IMG/VR virus record: IMGVR_UViG_3300000357_000164
Length of the DNA stretch: 10,359 bases
Source: a virus
Taxonomy: Duplodnaviria > Heunggongvirae > Uroviricota > Caudoviricetes
Reading direction: 5' to 3' (one strand)
How positions within the stretch are numbered: position 1 is the first letter of the stretch; every line of letters starts with the position of its first letter. The translations under genes and the position numbers were made by a program. Below the pieces are notes generated by a model. It searched no databases and was not told the origin of the DNA. It saw nothing but the letters and a program-made list of their open reading frames with translations. This document shows positions 145-7,883 of this stretch, piece after piece.

Positions 145-603
145 TTATTTCAGGCACTGAGTGCGGATATAGTCCTGTGCCCCTTCCAGTTGCTTGTGCA
201 TCGTCATCAGCCGCTCTCTGAGGGTGAAATAATCCCGTGTAACGGTGTCTGCCAGTTGGGGGCCGGTTGCATTATCCACGCCGGAGGTGGTGGGGGCTTC
301 ACGCACGGAGCCTGGACAGGTGGCGTTGATCCGCAGGCGCTTACGACCAGCGGCAACGTCAGCGCGAAGAGTTTCATTTTCAGCTCTCGCATCGGCTAAT
401 TCCCTCGAGTATTTTGCATCGAGCGCAGCAACATCGCGCTGGCGCACCTGCATATCAGTAATGGTTGCGTTCGCCAGCTTCAGTTCACTGGCTTTGTTAT
501 CGCGCTGCGCTTTGTAGGTAATCGCGTTATCACGGTAATGGTCTGTTGCCATCCACAGCGCACCACAGGCCACCAGCAGAATAACGATAAACGCGGAAAG
601 CAT
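145..603 (-). CDS. Rz: Rz i-spanin (inner-membrane spanin subunit), lambda Rz family
   Basis: Translation [65 protein letters not shown]... closely parallels lambda Rz as recalled (N-terminal TM segment, [34 protein letters not shown]-terminal Cys). ATG at 603 preferred over the in-frame GTG at 618 listed by the ORF track; stop TAA at 145-147. Confidence 0.88.
207..392 (-). CDS. Rz1: Rz1 o-spanin (outer-membrane lipoprotein spanin subunit), embedded in Rz in a different frame
   Basis: Wholly contained in Rz in another frame. Translation [61 protein letters not shown] has a lipobox (LVVSAC), a poly-Pro tract and matches lambda Rz1 as recalled ([14 protein letters not shown]...QTPLNGIISPSE). 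An alternative ATG lies at 377. Confidence 0.85.
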
Positions 604-614
604 TCGGTTTATGT

Positions 615-746
615 TCACCCCAGCAACCCCGACGAAGACAACATCATCCAGGCCATGGAAAGAAAAAGAGCAACCAGCATTAGTGAAAATGAAATGCCGA
701 CAATTACACAGAGGATCTTCGCCAGCGTTATGAGTTTGTCTGACAT
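615..746 (-). CDS. small single-pass membrane peptide (43 aa), function unknown, between endolysin and Rz
   Basis: ATG at 746 preceded by a strong SD (AGGGAGG, 7-nt spacer). Translation [43 protein letters not shown] has one long hydrophobic helix. Stop TGA at 615-617 lies 11 nt upstream of the Rz ATG; same strand and tight spacing as the flanking lysis genes. Confidence 0.55.
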
Positions 747-760
747 GCTTAATCCTCCCT

Positions 761-907
761 TCACGATTTCAACGCAATGACCAGTTTTGCCAGCCCATAC
801 AGCATCGGGGACACAGCAACACCGACCGCCACCCACTTAATGGCAAAAGCCAGTGCTCTGCTGATGTCATCAGTTACAGGCGCTTTCAGTTCAAGGCCAT
901 TTTTCAT
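761..907 (-). CDS. small protein (48 aa) with C-terminal hydrophobic helix, function unknown
   Basis: ATG at 907 preceded by GAGG with a 6-nt spacer. Translation [48 protein letters not shown]. Stop TGA at 761-763 sits directly in front of the SD of the next small ORF. An alternative in-frame ATG at 943 (also preceded by AGGGAG) would give 60 aa. Confidence 0.5.
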
Positions 908-1099
908 AGTCAACCTCAACAGAATTCGTTTACACTTCGCCATGTTCTCCCTTGCCTTACTCAAGGTCAGAAACACAAAACCTCGCTTGGTGCCAACAAA
1001 CGGGGTTTTTACTTTTATTCACTTACGTTTCGCCAGTTCGCAGGATTTCGTGTTATCCGCCCGCGTGGCCATTCCTCATTTTTCAGCAAAATATTCTGC

Positions 1100-1633
1100 T
1101 TATCTGTCGATACCCCAGCACGCCAGCGCGCTCTCCTGGTCACGACGGGATACCTGACCGTAACAGTTGTTTGAACGAATACGGCAGTCTCTGCCACCGT
1201 CCTTAATCCACCAGCGAATCGCTTCGCAGGCACCTTTTCGATCACCAGCATTAATTCGTCTGTAAAACGTCGACGGGAAACACTTACCGGGACCAATGTT
1301 GTACGGACAGAATGACGCGATCCCCGCTTTCTGGGGTTCGGTCAGCGGCACTCTGATGTTTTTCTCCACCCACGCCAGCGCTTTATCACGCTCAATGGCG
1401 TTAACCTGGTCGCATTTTTCCTTCGACAACTTCATGCCCGGAACGACAGGTTTGCCATCCACCATGATGGCACCACGGCAGATGGTCCAGATACCTGCAC
1501 CATCACGGTATGCCGTGGTGTGGTTGCCTTCCTTTTCATCCAGAAACTGGTCGAGAATGTCAGGCGCAGGCGCACCAGCGGCAATCAGCGCCAGAACGGC
1601 AGCCGACAGGCCGTATTTGATTTTGGTGTTCAT
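1100..1633 (-). CDS. R: SAR endolysin (phage lysozyme, T4-lysozyme-like muramidase fold with N-terminal signal-anchor-release domain)
   Basis: 177-aa ORF. N-terminal weakly hydrophobic Ala/Gly-rich segment (LSAAVLALIAAGAPAP) followed by an E-x8-D-x5-T catalytic spacing (EGNHTTAYRDGAGIWT), typical of R21-type SAR endolysins. It closely matches lambdoid/Stx-prophage endolysins as recalled. ATG at 1633, stop TAA at 1100-1102. Confidence 0.92.
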   Translation of the reverse strand: MNTKIKYGLSAAVLALIAAGAPAPDILDQFLDEKEGNHTTAYRDGAGIWTICRGAIMVDGKPVVPGMKLSKEKCDQVNAIERDKALAWVEKNIRVPLTEPQKAGIASFCPYNIGPGKCFPSTFYRRINAGDRKGACEAIRWWIKDGGRDCRIRSNNCYGQVSRRDQESALACWGIDR

Positions 1634-1669
1634 GGATATATTAAATATTCAGCCGCTGTCCCTGGCCCA

Positions 1670-2638
1670 CTAAATACGCACTTTAAGATAAGTCAGCCCC
1701 GGATGAAGCCAGTAAGCCGGCACTTTTTTAAAGGGTGGAGTATTAAAATCACGAAGAAGAGCCTCCCGCACAATTGCATCCTTATCAGCACCACTGGCCA
1801 GCGCTTCAATCTCAGCGGCTACCTGAAGATATNNNNNNNNNNNNNNNNNNNNNNNNNNNNNNNNNNNNNNNNNNNNNNNNNNNNNNNNNNNNNNNNNNNN
1901 NNNNNNNNNNNNNNNNNNNNNNNNNNNNNNNNNNNNNNNNNNNNNNNNNNNNNNNNNNNNNNNNNNNNNNNNNNNNNNNNNNNNNNNNNNNNNNNNNNNN
2001 NNNNNNNNNNNNNNNNNNNNNNNNNNNNNNNNTGAGATGGTTATTTTCCCAGCATCACCGGATACAACAAAGGATGGCCGGTTACACTCCCATTCCGGGT
2101 CACTGAAATTATCATTATGAATACTGAAACACTCTGCGAGATTTCTGCTCATCACTTTCCGACAATAATCGTCAAACGCAGCAAACTGCTTTTCATCGCC
2201 AGAAGGCACCAATATCGACCATTTCTTATTCAGCTCAACGACGTAGCTCTCCAGTTTTTCAATACGTGATTCAACATCATCTTTTTCTGACCGCAGTGTT
2301 GACGGCGGCATCTTCAGAGAACAAGTAATTCTTCCCGGTAGCTTTCCTTTGTAGGTTATCAACACATCCTGCGCCTCTAAAATTACGGGGCGCTTTTCCG
2401 GCAACGGTTCGTTCCATTCACATAACCCGGCAGCAACATCCATGAAAAACTGCTTCGCCTGCTTTTTCGCCTCAGCTTCGTAAAACTCCAGCGTGGCACC
2501 TTCAGTACGGTCAAGACTAATCGCCACATCTGGCAACAACAGCGACGCTTGCCCGTCACCTTCCGACTTCACAGTAACAGTAACCTTATCCCCGTAATTA
2601 TTTATCCCCTTAACAACCAGTTCATATTTTTTATTCAT
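1670..2638 (-). CDS. hypothetical protein (~322 aa) inserted between holin and endolysin; no recognisable family from sequence alone
   Basis: Long minus-strand ORF starting at ATG 2638 (the track starts at the in-frame GTG 2641). An SD (GGGGAGAG) lies inside the 3' end of the holin gene, and the holin stop TAA (2643-2645) is 4 nt from this ATG. Soluble-looking protein with a coiled-coil-like stretch (RSEKDDVESRIEKLESYVVELNKKW). The interior 1833-2032 is masked (200 N), so continuity of the N-terminal 200 aa with the C-terminal 54 aa is unproven. Stop TAG at 1670-1672, 36 nt before the endolysin ATG. Confidence 0.6.
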   Translation of the reverse strand: MNKKYELVVKGINNYGDKVTVTVKSEGDGQASLLLPDVAISLDRTEGATLEFYEAEAKKQAKQFFMDVAAGLCEWNEPLPEKRPVILEAQDVLITYKGKLPGRITCSLKMPPSTLRSEKDDVESRIEKLESYVVELNKKWSILVPSGDEKQFAAFDDYCRKVMSRNLAECFSIHNDNFSDPEWECNRPSFVVSGDAGKITISXXXXXXXXXXXXXXXXXXXXXXXXXXXXXXXXXXXXXXXXXXXXXXXXXXXXXXXXXXXXXXXXXXXYLQVAAEIEALASGADKDAIVREALLRDFNTPPFKKVPAYWLHPGLTYLKVRI

Positions 2639-2642
2639 CACT

Positions 2643-2858
2643 TTACTCTCCCCGCGCCGCCTTACGCCGGTCCTCTTTGATTTTGAAATACAGGTTAGTC
2701 AGGTACGTCAGCAGCCCAAACAGCAGACTCCCCAGCACGCCTATTGCCGCCCACTGAGACGGGGAAACCCTGTCCAGCAACTGCAGGAACCAGTAGCCCG
2801 TTCCCACCGCTGACGTGGTGTATGACACACCTGTTGTGATTTTTTCCATCTGGTACAT
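2643..2858 (-). CDS. S: pinholin, S21-family class II holin with dual-start motif (Met1/Met4)
   Basis: 71-aa product [71 protein letters not shown]; two TMDs and a charged C-terminus. Strong resemblance to phage 21 S21 as recalled (...[51 protein letters not shown]). SD GGGAG upstream of ATG 2858. Pairs functionally with the SAR endolysin downstream. Confidence 0.9.
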
Positions 2859-3180: not shown

Positions 3181-3315
3181 GGGATTTTCTCGTTGAAAGG
3201 TGTTGTCAAGAAAGTGACTACGGAATNNNNNNNNNNNNNNNNNNNNNNNNNNNNNNNNNNNNNNNNNNNNNNNNNNNNNNNNNNNNNNNNNNNNNNNNNN
3301 NNNNNNNNNNNNNNN

Positions 3316-3615: not shown

Positions 3616-5745
3616 TCATGCCGCGATGTCCGCGTTGTTCACTTCCACCTTCACACTGTCAATCAGCAGCGTATATGTCGCCGCCTTTGATATGCCTGTC
3701 AGTTGCAGTTTGTCCGCCGCCCCTGATGCCGGAGATTTCACCAGTGTGAACGGCGTCCCCCGTTTCTCATCCAGTACCGGCGTCACCTGAATGCTGTTGT
3801 TTCCGGCAAACTCAAAAGCCAGTGTGTGCCATCCGTTATCAAAGACCCCGAACGTTTCCAGCTTCGCATTCGGCTTCTTGTGGTGCATCGCGTTCAGGTT
3901 CGTCGCATCCGTCTGCAGAAAGAAGGACATCAGCATGTCGTTGCCTTCCTCTGCCAGCGTCACTCCCTCNNNNNNNNNNNNNNNNNNNNNNNNNNNNNNN
4001 NNNNNNNNNNNNNNNNNNNNNNNNNNNNNNNNNNNNNNNNNNNNNNNNNNNNNNNNNNNNNNAACTGCCAGTAAATGCCCAGGGCAAACTGATTCGGCAC
4101 CAGTGAACCCGGCAACTTAAACCGTACGCTCACACGTCCCCCCTTCTTCAGTAACTCCACTCCCTGTCCGGCTGCATCATGCTCCAGAAACCAGATGTGG
4201 TTTTCCGGTTTATTCAGTTGCAGGGCCTTACCTCCCGTAGCCCCCGCATCACTGACCACCGCTTCAGCAATGTTTTTGTTAACATTGTCTCCGCTCGCCG
4301 GTTTGTGATAATAGCGCCAGCCCTGTGATGCCAGGTCTTCGCCGGACGCCAGCAGACTCATCAGGGTTCGGTTACTGACCGGGGCTTCCGGCTCTCTCTC
4401 CGTACCTTCACCGGAAGGTCCGGTGGGCTTCACCGTATCAGGCTGTTTTCCGGTAATGAATTCAGCGTTTCTCCCGGCATGCACAAGAATCGCCGTTGCC
4501 AGACGGTCGGAAATAATCCCACGACGTGCCCATGATCCAAAATGCGTTTTACGGTCAGCCGTCGTCCAGGTTTTGGCGTCCGTTCGACCACCGGCTCCGT
4601 AATACCCAATATCCGCAACATCCGGATCTTCTGACGGCTCGTTGGTACCCACATTTCGCCCGTTTTCATCCGTCATAAACGGCACAAAGAAGNNNNNNNN
4701 NNNNNNNNNNNNNNNNNNNNNNNNNNNNNNNNNNNNNNNNNNNNNNNNNNNNNNNNNNNNNNNNNNNNNNNNNNNNNNNNNNNNNNNNNNNTGCGGATTT
4801 CGTCTTGTATGCACCATACACCGCATCGTATTGCGAAGAATAAGTCTGCTTCCAGTAGTAGGTCGTGTCGCCACAAATCCAGGGAACCGATGACGGAGAG
4901 CCCCCGAGACACTGACCTCCGAATTCCGACAGGTCAGAACGATATTTTTCCACCATGGAATCAAACAGCCCCGGCTGGGTGGCGTATGCACCCTGTTTCA
5001 AATCAAACTCGCCCTGCATCCAGACCACTGCAAGCAGAATATTTTTAGGGTTGGCCTTCAGTGCGGCCTGAGTACGGGTAAGCAGGTCCTTGTACAGTGG
5101 CTTATCTACACCCCAGCGTGCCGAGGTCTCGCTTGCGCCGGTGGATTCGCTGAAGGTACCTTCATCGCCCGCCAAAAATGCAGAACCACCACGGCAGCAC
5201 GGAACCAGAAGAATACCGGCATTCGCCGGAATAAACGGCAACAATTTCTTCGCGATATGTAATCCCTGCCCCACGCATCCATACTGAGCTGCACTGGCTT
5301 TCGGGTGTGAAAACTTACTCAAATCCTGAACATCATGCAGGCAGTGGTCCGCAGGAATAATGTCATTGTAGTTACAGAACGCACCACCCGGCGTGACAGT
5401 GCTGCGACGCGCCAGCTGTTTAATACGCGGGTCCGGACGGTCATATGTCTCCGGCAGCGGAAGCCCTTCACCATACGCCATACCGTTTGACTGCCCGGCC
5501 AGGGCAACAACAAAGTAATACTCCGGGTTGCTGGTGGTGCTGATAACTGCGCCTTCTCCATCCGACGGCTTCACCACCACAGGTGTGGTGACATCACCTT
5601 CCGCCGCAATGGCCTGCATCAGGGTATAAGGCGTGATGGCCACCGGACTGCCAAATGGCTGCCACCCCTCCTTCAGTTTTTGTGTCAGTCGTTTCGCAAG
5701 GTCTGACGGCGATGCCGCCCTGACAACATCATAGTGTTTAAATGC
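3616..5745 (-). CDS. nanS-p: NanS-p-type phage sialate 9-O-acetylesterase (SASA/DUF303 esterase domain with C-terminal lectin-like region), interrupted by masked blocks
   Basis: Large minus-strand coding region with the SASA esterase GQSN motif (VALAGQSNGMAYGEG) and surrounding similarity to prophage NanS-p/YjhS-like esterases as recalled. The N-terminal part (AFKHYDVVRAASPSDLAKRLTQKLKEGWQPFGSPVA) resembles the DUF1737 region. The start lies inside N block 5746-5849. The coding frame differs on each side of N blocks 4693-4791 and 3970-4062 (three track ORFs: 4666..5964, 3960..4991, 3616..3963). Stop TGA at 3616-3618. Confidence 0.8.
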
Positions 5746-6017
5746 NNNNNNNNNNNNNNNNNNNNNNNNNNNNNNNNNNNNNNNNNNNNNNNNNNNNNNN
5801 NNNNNNNNNNNNNNNNNNNNNNNNNNNNNNNNNNNNNNNNNNNNNNNNNATTCTTTAAAATACCTGACATGTAATACAGAAAAAACACAAAACCATACCT
5901 TAAATAAAAACCTCATCATCAAGCAGATATGCATGGATAAACTACAAGACGAGATATAAACCACCCTGCATTTAAATAAACAATAAACAACATCAGAAAA
6001 ATAATTCTGCTCTATGG

Positions 6018-6245: not shown

Positions 6246-6475
6246 NNNNNNNNNNNNNNNNNNNNNNNNNNNNNNNNNNNNNNNNNNNNNNNNNNNNNNN
6301 NNNNNNNNNNNNNNNNNNNNNNNNNNNNNNNNNNNNTGCTACCTGTAACCATTTACAACGTAGCACCATTCAATAAAACATTCTGGAATTTAATCAAAAA
6401 CAGCCAGGAATGTCCTACAAATACAGATAACGTATTGAATGAATGCTTTAATAACCGTTGCACTCTGCAAATATG

Positions 6476-6509
6476 TCCTTATGGACTAAAACAACAAAGT
6501 CCATAAGGA
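6476..6509. repeat. perfect 12-bp inverted repeat with 10-nt spacer (hairpin or palindromic binding site)
   Basis: TCCTTATGGACT (6476-6487) and AGTCCATAAGGA (6498-6509) are exact reverse complements; spacer AAAACAACAA. No clean U-tract follows on either strand. Confidence 0.6.
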
Positions 6510-6521
6510 GTTTACTCACAT

Positions 6522-6562
6522 CTGACAAAATCAATATAAACAGCCCCTCCGGAGAGGGGCTG
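6522..6562 (-). terminator. rho-independent terminator for minus-strand transcription
   Basis: Perfect 9-bp GC-rich stem CAGCCCCTC (6541-6549) / GAGGGGCTG (6554-6562) with a 4-nt loop. On the minus strand the hairpin is followed by TTTATATTGATTTTG (complement of 6522-6540). Confidence 0.55.
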
Positions 6563-6883
6563 GAGAGTGGCGCTATGTGCCATTGCATGGTGCCGGGTGC
6601 CTCCCGGTGAATTCAGTACCAGCACCTGAATCCGCGATTATCCCATATACCTACTCGCTGATTGCCCCTCCGCACNNNNNNNNNNNNNNNNNNNNNNNNN
6701 NNNNNNNNNNNNNNNNNNNNNNNNNNNNNNNNNNNNNNNNNNNNNNNNNNNNNNNNNNNNNNNNNNNNNNNNNNNNNNNNNNNNNNNNNNNNNNNNNNNN
6801 NNNNNNNNCCCCGCAAACCAGACAACAGTCAACCGCCTGAATTGTGAAGTATTTAAAAATTTCTCCCGCTAACTGATACCCGG

Positions 6884-6970
6884 CTAACAGTCTGGCGTTT
6901 TCTTTTTCAGCAACGGGAAAGCAACAACCACCACACCCGCCACCAGCACACCGTCAGCCAGCACTGACAT
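6884..6970 (-). CDS. candidate 28-aa hydrophobic peptide (speculative)
   Basis: ATG at 6970 to TAG at 6884-6886 gives MSVLADGVLVAGVVVVAFPLLKKKTPDC, a Val/Gly-rich hydrophobic stretch followed by KKK. It lies in a locally GC-rich patch of the AT-rich island. Weak SD; too short for the ORF track. Confidence 0.2.
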   Translation of the reverse strand: MSVLADGVLVAGVVVVAFPLLKKKTPDC

Positions 6971-7050
6971 TATCCGGCTGCTGCAATGCCACTCACAAAA
7001 ACAGTAAGCAATCACTTTTTACCGTAACAAGTGATAATCCAGATATGTAT

Positions 7051-7404
7051 CTACCCCAGATGAGTAATCCGAAGTTCATCCATACCACAGGTACTGGCTA
7101 TTCTGTTGTACTCCTGAACAAGAGCAAATAATTCTGAATTAGCAACCATGAACTCATCGCAAACCCTCTGTATAGCATCACTATTCAGAATAATAACGTC
7201 TCTTCCCGAAAGACGATCAGGAGTACAGAACAAAACTGTCAAACGGCTGAAGGCCTTTGCTCGTCCTGCATTGACTATATCAATACGCTGCCTAAGGATG
7301 AAACACCCCGACGCCTCATCAATATTCACTCTACCCACACCATATGAATGATAAATATTTAATGCTGAAAAAACCATTAGACCGTATAACAAACACTCAA
7401 TCAA
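7051..7404 (-). CDS. hypothetical ORF (117 aa) in cargo island; possibly a gene remnant
   Basis: The track ORF starts at TTG 7404; the first in-frame ATG is at 7377. No convincing SD for either start. Translation ...GRVNIDEASGCFILRQRIDIVNAGRAKAFSRLTVLFCTPDRLSGRDVIILNSDAIQRVCDEFMVANSELFALVQEYNRIASTCG... matches nothing I recognise. Confidence 0.3.
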   Translation of the reverse strand: MIECLLYGLMVFSALNIYHSYGVGRVNIDEASGCFILRQRIDIVNAGRAKAFSRLTVLFCTPDRLSGRDVIILNSDAIQRVCDEFMVANSELFALVQEYNRIASTCGMDELRITHLG

Positions 7405-7517
7405 TACTTAACAGAACTTTTATTTTTGACAAACATAAAATATTTTCAACAATATCCTGAGCCAGGTATATTTCAGTATAAGGCTCTGCCGGAAGGAATC
7501 TGGAAGAATGAATATAG

Positions 7518-7591
7518 CGCGCTGTACTGGATTCGAACCAGTGACCGATTGCTTAGAAGGCAATTGCTCTGTCCGGCTGAGCTAACAACGC
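7518..7591 (-). tRNA. tRNA-Arg (anticodon UCU), phage-borne; 3' CCA not encoded
   Basis: Minus-strand sequence GCGTTGTTAGCTCAGCCGGACAGAGCAATTGCCTTCTAAGCAATCGGTCACTGGTTCGAATCCAGTACAGCGCG folds as a cloverleaf: 7-bp acceptor stem with one G-U, D arm GCTC/GAGC, anticodon loop CTTCTAA, T arm with GGTTCGAATCC. It resembles E. coli argU-type tRNA. The discriminator is followed by CTA rather than CCA. Confidence 0.85.
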
Positions 7592-7691: not shown

Positions 7692-7767
7692 TGGTGGCCC
7701 TTGCTGGATTTGAACCAGCGACCTGGCGATTATGAGTCGCTCGCTCTCACCACTGAGCTAAAGGGCC
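7692..7767 (-). tRNA. tRNA-Ile2-like (anticodon CAU, ileX/ileZ-type; could formally be Met)
   Basis: Minus-strand sequence GGCCCTTTAGCTCAGTGGTGAGAGCGAGCGACTCATAATCGCCAGGTCGCTGGTTCAAATCCAGCAAGGGCCACCA (76 nt, CCA encoded) is near-identical in architecture to E. coli ileX tRNA as recalled. Anticodon loop CTCATAA. Confidence 0.88.
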
Positions 7768-7883
7768 GGGAGCAGAATAATAACNNNNNNNNNNNNNNNN
7801 NNNNNNNNNNNNNNNNNNNNNNNNNNNNNNNNNNNNNNNNNNNNNNNNNNNNNNNNNNNNNNNNNNNNNNNNNATTAATTCCG

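Follow-up and report, generated by a model that had tools for sequence, protein, structure and literature searches.

The gene situated between the pinholin gene S and the signal-anchor-release (SAR) endolysin gene R in the Caudoviricetes record IMGVR_UViG_3300000357_000164, a stretch of 10,359 nucleotides (nt) that is called the window here, almost certainly represents the YdfR/DUF1327 family in its full-length form with two domains; such genes are accessory late genes of lambdoid prophages, and the product is a soluble cytoplasmic protein of 296 amino acids (aa). On the minus strand, the open reading frame (ORF; 1670-2638) extends from an ATG at 2636-2638 to a TAG stop at 1670-1672. The gene is widespread among prophages and has been catalogued before; in E. 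coli lysis cassettes of this type its presence is nothing unusual. What the present analysis adds is the two-domain architecture of the protein, a C-terminal module that is matched by no Pfam or NCBIfam model, the existence of relatives in Salmonella, a split and swapped form of the gene, and the takeover of the start context of R.

A large proportion of the lambdoid prophages of E. coli, including most of the sequenced Shiga toxin (Stx) phages, carry a YdfR-family gene within their lysis cassette. No studies were found in the literature on the gene between S and R in Stx phages, and it is not taken up in two genomic surveys of the Stx-phage lysis regions or in reviews of these regions.

Identity and domain architecture

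Residues 1-100 of the protein match the Pfam model DUF1327 (PF07041, the YdfR family) with a score of 137.9 bits, the cut-off being 25 (E 1.3e-40). Furthermore, the whole protein is matched from end to end by phrog_1085 (296 of 296 positions, E 3.1e-190), a PHROG family of unknown function. The exact 296-aa sequence is present on at least 1000 public contigs, where it is labelled either "YdfR family protein" or "DUF1327 domain-containing protein". In a preliminary description of this DNA, made from the sequence alone, it was held that no family could be assigned, which is corrected by the DUF1327 and phrog_1085 matches. That description also considered that the ORF might prove to be a common annotated late-region gene of known function; common and annotated it is, but a known function is not attached to it.

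The annotation itself is uneven. In the 100%-identical chromosome of E. coli MCJCHV-1 (locus L004, positions 6313-7200), RefSeq marks only the first 336 nt, as a pseudogene ("YdfR family protein, incomplete, missing C-terminus"), and in seven sampled RefSeq E. coli genomes (at least 99% identity) the DNA of the C-terminal module carries no annotated feature while the frame is open over 296 codons. The "missing C-terminus" label is judged to be an annotation artefact, given this open frame and the other records in which the full protein is present.

As displayed in the window, the ORF measures 969 nt, and this is where the length of about 322 aa in the preliminary description originates. The flanks of ten of the 12 runs of N in the window were compared with locus L004; the two others fall beyond this locus and hence outside the comparison. 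Each of the ten exceeds the real sequence by 78-97 nt. In one example, 89 N replace 8 nt, and masks of this kind are found at 1833-2032, 3227-3315 and 7785-7873, among other places. Since the masks are not length-preserving, the lengths and frames of ORFs across any mask in the window are unreliable. Within the gene, the 200 N at 1833-2032 correspond to 122 nt in 100%-identical genomes, and these are expected to encode ENGKVTPPSHQHSEELIEFAIDYLKNNKKQGLMKRVGRCMG. The surplus of 78 nt equals 26 codons, so that the frame is kept across the mask. Likewise, the stretch from S through the ORF to R spans 1351 nt in the window and 1273 nt in many complete E. coli chromosomes, the unmasked parts being 100% identical. 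The greater length is therefore a padding artefact, and the true product has 296 aa. Unmasked through locus L004, the ORF consists of 296 codons and a stop, with neither an internal stop nor a frameshift in the 122 nt.

In the protein, three parts can be discerned. The N-terminal DUF1327 domain (aa 1-75; 2414-2638, minus strand), delimited by PF07041 and by AlphaFold2 (AF2) modelling, is acidic, with an isoelectric point (pI) of 4.8, and is predicted to contain three strands and a long helix. Next come a linker (aa 73-120), a pair of long helices (aa 116-143 and 149-171) and a middle segment that varies, together encoded by 2087-2413 (minus strand; AF2). The C-terminal module (aa 185-296; 1670-2086, minus strand, including the padded mask and the stop), recognized from the alignment, from the ratio of nonsynonymous to synonymous substitution rates (dN/dS) and from AF2, is basic (pI 9.2) and is modelled as three short strands and four helices. 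On E. coli sequences alone AF2 gives a poor model, with a predicted local distance difference test (pLDDT) score of 51.5; with the Salmonella relatives added, in an alignment of 140 sequences, the score is 66.9. The N domain (aa 1-72) reaches pLDDT values of 70-88, in a beta3-alpha layout, and the C module 79-92. For the two long helices, which likely form a coiled coil, the values are 50-67. The linker stays below 40 with no confident structure and is predicted to be flexible or disordered; the linker and middle region also holds indels and module swaps among family members.

The C module keeps 18 positions invariant when 11 diverse representatives, from E. coli and from Salmonella relatives, are aligned, with the motifs H..., GRxMxxLQxAAEIE, PPxK and WxxPGxxYL. 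Its dN/dS, calculated for the C-terminal third against diverged alleles, is 0.17-0.20, versus 0.55 for the N domain. The C module is the best-conserved part of the protein and is under purifying selection at the protein level. The 296 open codons and the low dN/dS of the C-terminal third indicate that the ORF is more than a product of chance; a broken or chance-fused ORF, which was also considered, is ruled out by its integrity in the 100%-identical genomes and by this purifying selection.

No Pfam, NCBIfam or PADLOC model matches the C module, fold searches gave no significant match to any solved chain, and a HMMER search of the PDB sequences with a profile of the C module was without match. 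An internal duplication, relating the N domain to the C module, was rejected (hhalign probability below 1%). There is no transmembrane segment (maximum 19-residue Kyte-Doolittle average 0.75; grand average of hydropathy -0.41), and the protein is therefore cytoplasmic. No signal peptide, toxin-like or enzymatic signature was found, and with DUF1327 as the only match in Pfam and NCBIfam, endolysin or spanin domains are not detected either; R and Rz/Rz1 are separate genes. The earlier reading of a long ORF with no recognizable membrane or catalytic motif is thus upheld.

The slot between S and R

The two genes flanking the ORF are of well-defined types, as had been recognized in the preliminary description. 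S (2643-2858, minus strand; PF04971, E 7e-33, and translation) encodes an S21-type pinholin, a class II holin, of 71 codons with the dual-start motif M1-Y-Q-M4. R (1100-1633, minus strand; PF00959, E 2e-24, and translation) encodes an R21-type SAR lysozyme whose N-terminus is hydrophobic and which has an E-8aa-D-5aa-T motif. As a side observation on S, its dual-start motif (2847-2858) reads M-Y-Q-M, without the positive charge of the Lys2 type. In phage 21, S starts with M-K-S-M, and Lys2 adds a positive charge to the longer, antiholin form.

The occupancy of the slot was surveyed in 80 IMG/VR contigs whose holin shares at least 97% identity with that of the window, and 70 of them show both S and R. 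YdfR-family modules are present between the two genes in 57 of these 70 cassettes, and the slot is empty in 12 and holds something else in one. An occupied slot is thus the common state for this type of cassette and not an anomaly. The 296-aa form itself accounts for nine of the 70. The gene had been taken for an unrecognized insertion into a canonical S-R pair; instead, it is a member of the YdfR family, of which the namesake occupies the corresponding place in prophage Qin of K-12 (essQ-ydfR-rrrQ).

The family is markedly modular, and its members come in many sizes. The S-R gene of phage BP-4795 encodes a YdfR-family protein of 114 aa, that of phage PhiR5_1 a protein of 211 aa, and that of phage Stx2_95 a protein of 329 aa that is 86% identical to the window protein. 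Forms with only an N domain have 103-114 aa; other forms have 162-211, 268, 287, 296, 305 or 329-333 aa, and there are stand-alone proteins of 185-222 aa without the N domain. Of 5426 complete E. coli genomes, 3158 contain DNA of the N domain and 787 DNA of the C module. Among 50,697 deposited phage genomes, five contain the C module, all of them Stx2 phages. Probably, the two-domain form is ancestral and the short YdfR proteins of 103-114 aa are N-terminal remnants.

A split arrangement with permuted order exists in other E. coli prophages, one of which encodes Stx (loci L006-L009, positions 4001-4897): here S is followed by a 213-aa protein consisting of coil and C module, then by a 75-aa DUF1327 protein, and then by R. 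The fusion in one lineage and the adjacent, split and swapped pair in another speak for a joint action of the N and C modules. Apart from this, the split-arrangement prophages carry a 95-aa antisense ORF before R, which has no Pfam match. Small antisense ORFs beside relatives of the gene (L003, L006, L010, L013) are not clearly related to each other, the only cross-match being between L013 and L003 (28 aa, E 0.001), and none of them has a Pfam match.

The start of the gene is closely linked to the end of S. The S stop codon, TAA at 2643-2645, is followed by AGTG and then by the ATG, and a GGAG Shine-Dalgarno (SD) sequence (2648-2651, minus strand; positions -13 to -10) lies within the last codons of S. 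The arrangement given in the preliminary description, with an SD inside the 3' end of S and 4 nt between the S stop and the ATG, is therefore read in the sequence as such. The junction in occupied cassettes is GGGGAGAG-TAA-AGTG-ATG, where the ATG belongs to the YdfR-family gene, and in empty cassettes GGGGAGAG-TAA-GCTG-ATG, where it belongs to R. Since the context is the same in both, the inserted gene inherits the coupled start of R. In a filled slot, the SAR endolysin is shifted from this S-coupled start to a leader without SD. In the window, this leader measures 36 nt (1634-1669, minus strand), has no evident SD and ends in ...AATATTTAATATATCC-ATG. Its last 10-13 nt are nearly identical across the occupied forms, with endings of ...ATAAATATCC-ATG or ...AATATATCC-ATG (window 1634-1669; IMG/VR loci L016-L095). 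The first residues of R are MNTK or MNAK where the slot is filled and MSRK where it is empty.

On the strand of the gene, no promoter-like site was found from S to Rz, and no strong terminator was found between S and R. The lack of an own promoter and of a strong terminator before R, together with the start context at the end of S, makes it a reasonable inference, in agreement with the preliminary description, that the gene is co-transcribed and co-expressed late with S and R from the Q-dependent late transcript. In K-12, ydfR has almost no reads during normal growth (PMC13232886), and this near-silence, combined with the absence of a promoter-like site from S to Rz, supports expression that is limited to the late phase. 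A terminator-like hairpin (13 bp, GC-rich, with a T-rich tail) is situated upstream of S on the strand of the gene, between DUF826 and S (window about 2896-2925; L004:6026-6055); presumably, Q-modified polymerase reads through it.

Outside E. coli, the C module has a narrow distribution. A HMMER search with the stand-alone coil-plus-C form over 1.8 billion cluster representatives gave only 36 matches, and those with a named source are from Escherichia or Salmonella. When 5.8 billion proteins were searched with a profile, 56 matched, with Escherichia, Shigella or Salmonella as the named sources, and a pattern-limited scan of the GTDB species representatives yielded three loci. In the profile search and the GTDB species scan, the C module is thus found only in Escherichia, Shigella and Salmonella.

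The distant matches are prophage proteins of Salmonella enterica of 190-340 aa, about 40% identical in the C module. Like the window protein, they are composed of an N domain, a coiled coil and a C module in this order (for example P0129, P0167 and P0203), and they share with it the 18 invariant positions. Unlike the window protein, they have no Pfam match at all, although their N domains are related to DUF1327 in an hhalign comparison of profiles (85% probability, E 6e-6). The Salmonella gene is also part of a late operon and adjoins the lysis genes, but it is located directly upstream of the holin gene instead of inside S-R. The order is Q, a HicAB pair, the gene, and then S and R, which overlap. 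Some of the Salmonella cassettes use a different holin family (PF16080).

It could be imagined that the ORF acts mainly in cis, by uncoupling R from its S-linked start, so that the SD-less leader lowers or retimes the synthesis of the SAR endolysin and the protein itself is of little consequence. The junctions are in accordance with this: R starts 4 nt after the S stop in empty cassettes, and in occupied ones this context serves the YdfR-family gene and R is left with the conserved leader. However, the dN/dS of about 0.2 for the C module and the residues that are invariant from Escherichia to Salmonella reflect selection on the protein. Furthermore, with the Salmonella homolog positioned upstream of overlapping S and R genes, a cis effect cannot be the conserved function. 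As the main role of the gene, such an effect is very improbable.

Possible functions of the long form

K-12 YdfR is the only family member with experimental data. Its residues 1-72 came out of a bacterial two-hybrid screen (Göpel et al. 2026, PMC13232886). In the same work, full-length K-12 YdfR was positive in two-hybrid with residues 1-597 of RNase E (Rne), FLAG-tagged Rne 1-598 co-eluted with Strep-YdfR, and DNase-resistant nucleic acid co-purified with YdfR (PMC13232886). By analogy, we tentatively consider it possible that the product of the window gene is a late cytoplasmic adaptor in RNA metabolism or host takeover and not a lysis protein. Of the roles weighed here this one ranks highest, as it alone has direct data on a family member behind it. 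The gene would be expressed from the Q-dependent late transcript, using the SD and the 4-nt start context that serve R in empty cassettes. The N domain would bind to the catalytic, N-terminal half of RNase E, or to RNA, as reported for residues 1-72 of K-12 YdfR, the coiled coil would oligomerize the protein, and a second surface, for binding or for an effector action, would be provided by the C module. For lysis itself the gene would be dispensable; the 12 out of 70 near-identical cassettes that lack it indicate that lysis proceeds independently of it. For the window allele, binding of RNase E or RNA and any effect on phage yield are inferred.

Several points weigh against an RNA-directed role. 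The RNase E data come from a relative that is 47% identical and consists of the N domain only. Full-length YdfR was two-hybrid-positive only with Rne 1-597, its overexpression altered few transcripts, and a contaminant as the source of the RNA signal was not excluded by the authors (PMC13232886). For the C module, the PDB offers neither a fold relative nor a sequence relative. The frequency of truncated and reshuffled forms is compatible with weak or conditional selection. Finally, both in E. coli, inside S-R, and in a second genus, Salmonella, immediately upstream of S, the family stays close to the lysis genes, which fits a lysis-linked role equally well.

Such a lysis-linked role could be that of a cytoplasmic regulator of lysis timing, which would attach to the pinholin on its cytoplasmic side, for instance to its charged C-terminal tail, or to the membrane-tethered SAR endolysin, and would delay or sharpen triggering in a manner reminiscent of T4 RIII or P1 LydB. 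The gene always adjoins the lysis genes, although the region from Q to S is a general site for accessory genes, which makes adjacency weak evidence, and it is translated from an S-coupled start. In K-12, ydfR is among the matches of a screen of mutants for envelope integrity with chlorophenol red-beta-D-galactopyranoside (CPRG) (PMC3879167 supplement), a result that speaks for involvement in lysis but could also be due to a polar effect of the resistance cassette on rrrQ. The protein has no transmembrane segment, its PHROG matches are all of unknown function and none belongs to lysis, cassettes with an almost identical holin can do without the gene (12 of 70), and short forms with only an N or only a C module are common. 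All in all, a lysis-timing regulator seems rather unlikely.

A third type of role is that of an accessory "moron" outside both lysis and RNA decay, involved in phage exclusion or anti-defence, or released by lysis to act on neighbouring cells or the animal host. The late-operon region of lambdoid phages carries accessory cargo such as stx and nanS-p (PMC8136144), and the gene shares this location. Cassettes that are otherwise near-identical differ in whether they have it, the family is highly mosaic, and evolution is faster in the N domain than in the C module (dN/dS 0.55 versus 0.20). These features speak for a moron, but there are no signal peptide, toxin-like or enzymatic signatures, and no own promoter from which the gene could be expressed in the lysogen. 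The PADLOC matches are not significant (best PbeC, E 0.015, 11.6 bits, covering only the coiled-coil region), and late timing is unusual for anti-defence genes. A role as moron is therefore regarded as doubtful.

To return to the RNA-directed adaptor, it is possible to speculate beyond the single protein. Among the temperate lambdoid and Stx phages, the long YdfR proteins might be the first factors directed at RNase E or RNA. They would be produced along with the lysis proteins, with a fast-evolving N domain docking on the catalytic half of RNase E and a conserved, basic C module that alters the decay or processing of late transcripts or host RNA, thereby tuning burst size, Stx output or lysis timing. 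In this extended form the proposal is a long shot. If the connection to RNase E is true, it would link late Stx-phage development to host RNA decay; if it is false, the gene is one more accessory gene.

The surrounding late region and known systems

The late region of the window is oriented along the minus strand, with the order DUF968/HNH gene, RusA, antiterminator Q, two tRNAs, an IraM-like gene, a nanS-p-like esterase, DUF1378 and DUF826, followed by S, the YdfR-family ORF, R, two small ORFs and Rz/Rz1. The two tRNA genes 3' of Q are located at 7517-7591 and 7692-7767 (minus strand); one is a tRNA-Arg(tct), and the other has a CAT anticodon, assigned to Met by ARAGORN versus Ile by RefSeq. 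Between the tRNAs and nanS-p, at the position of stx in Stx phages, an ORF of 117 aa (7051-7404, minus strand) is labelled "anti-adapter protein IraM" in L004; it has no Pfam match at E up to 0.01. The nanS-p-like gene (3960-5964, minus strand; DUF1737/SASA/DUF6645) takes the form of two ORFs that overlap and lie in different frames, is frameshifted according to the L004 annotation, and is probably a pseudogene in this prophage.

Downstream of R, the interval between R and Rz (615-976, minus strand) constitutes a second variable slot. Here it contains two small ORFs, annotated in L004 as hypothetical proteins of 60 and 43 aa and without significant Pfam match; in related prophages it contains an Ant/Bro-N antirepressor or an N6/N4 DNA methyltransferase gene (L002, L006, L007). 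The cassette is completed by the i-spanin gene Rz (145-618, minus strand; PF03245, E 2e-47; ORF list) and, embedded in it, the o-spanin gene Rz1 (207-392, minus strand; ORF list).

Among known proteins, YdfR of K-12 (b1555, 103 aa) is a close point of reference. It occupies the same slot, with the S21-type holin gene essQ and the R21-type lysozyme gene rrrQ on either side, and the N domain of the window protein is 47% identical to its residues 1-74, both matching PF07041. However, K-12 YdfR consists of an N domain and a short tail, without the linker, coiled coil and C module of the window protein. The junction with the lysozyme gene differs as well: ydfR overlaps rrrQ by 4 nt, and the window gene instead precedes the 36-nt leader of R. 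The phrog_1085 proteins, or RefSeq "YdfR family proteins", of 296-333 aa, such as that of the Stx2a phage Stx2_95 (BCI50300.1, 329 aa) and orf5 of Stx2 phage 86, are collinear with the window protein over the full length and are encoded in the same slot. The window allele lacks a middle insert of 33-37 aa, and the window prophage has the IraM-like gene in the place of stx.

T4 RIII and P1 LydB are soluble antiholins encoded beside holins. Like these, the window protein is soluble and of small to medium size, and its gene lies beside a holin gene. Holins and membrane antiholins (S21 71, T4 RI) have a transmembrane or SAR segment, which the window protein does not. No PHROG family of the lysis category is matched at E up to 0.1. 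Unlike what would be expected for an antiholin of the RIII or LydB type, many near-identical cassettes lack the window gene.

T4 Srd, T7 gp0.7 and phiKZ Dip are phage proteins that target RNase E. No fold or sequence similarity was found between the window protein and Dip, nor with the RNase E regulators RraA, RraB and RapZ. If the connection to RNase E holds, the long YdfR proteins would nevertheless embody the same idea as Srd, gp0.7 and Dip, that is, a phage protein produced in the lytic phase which, by binding RNase E, reshapes RNA decay. The setting would be a different one: those three proteins belong to virulent phages and act in early or middle infection, whereas the window gene is a late gene of temperate lambdoid phages.

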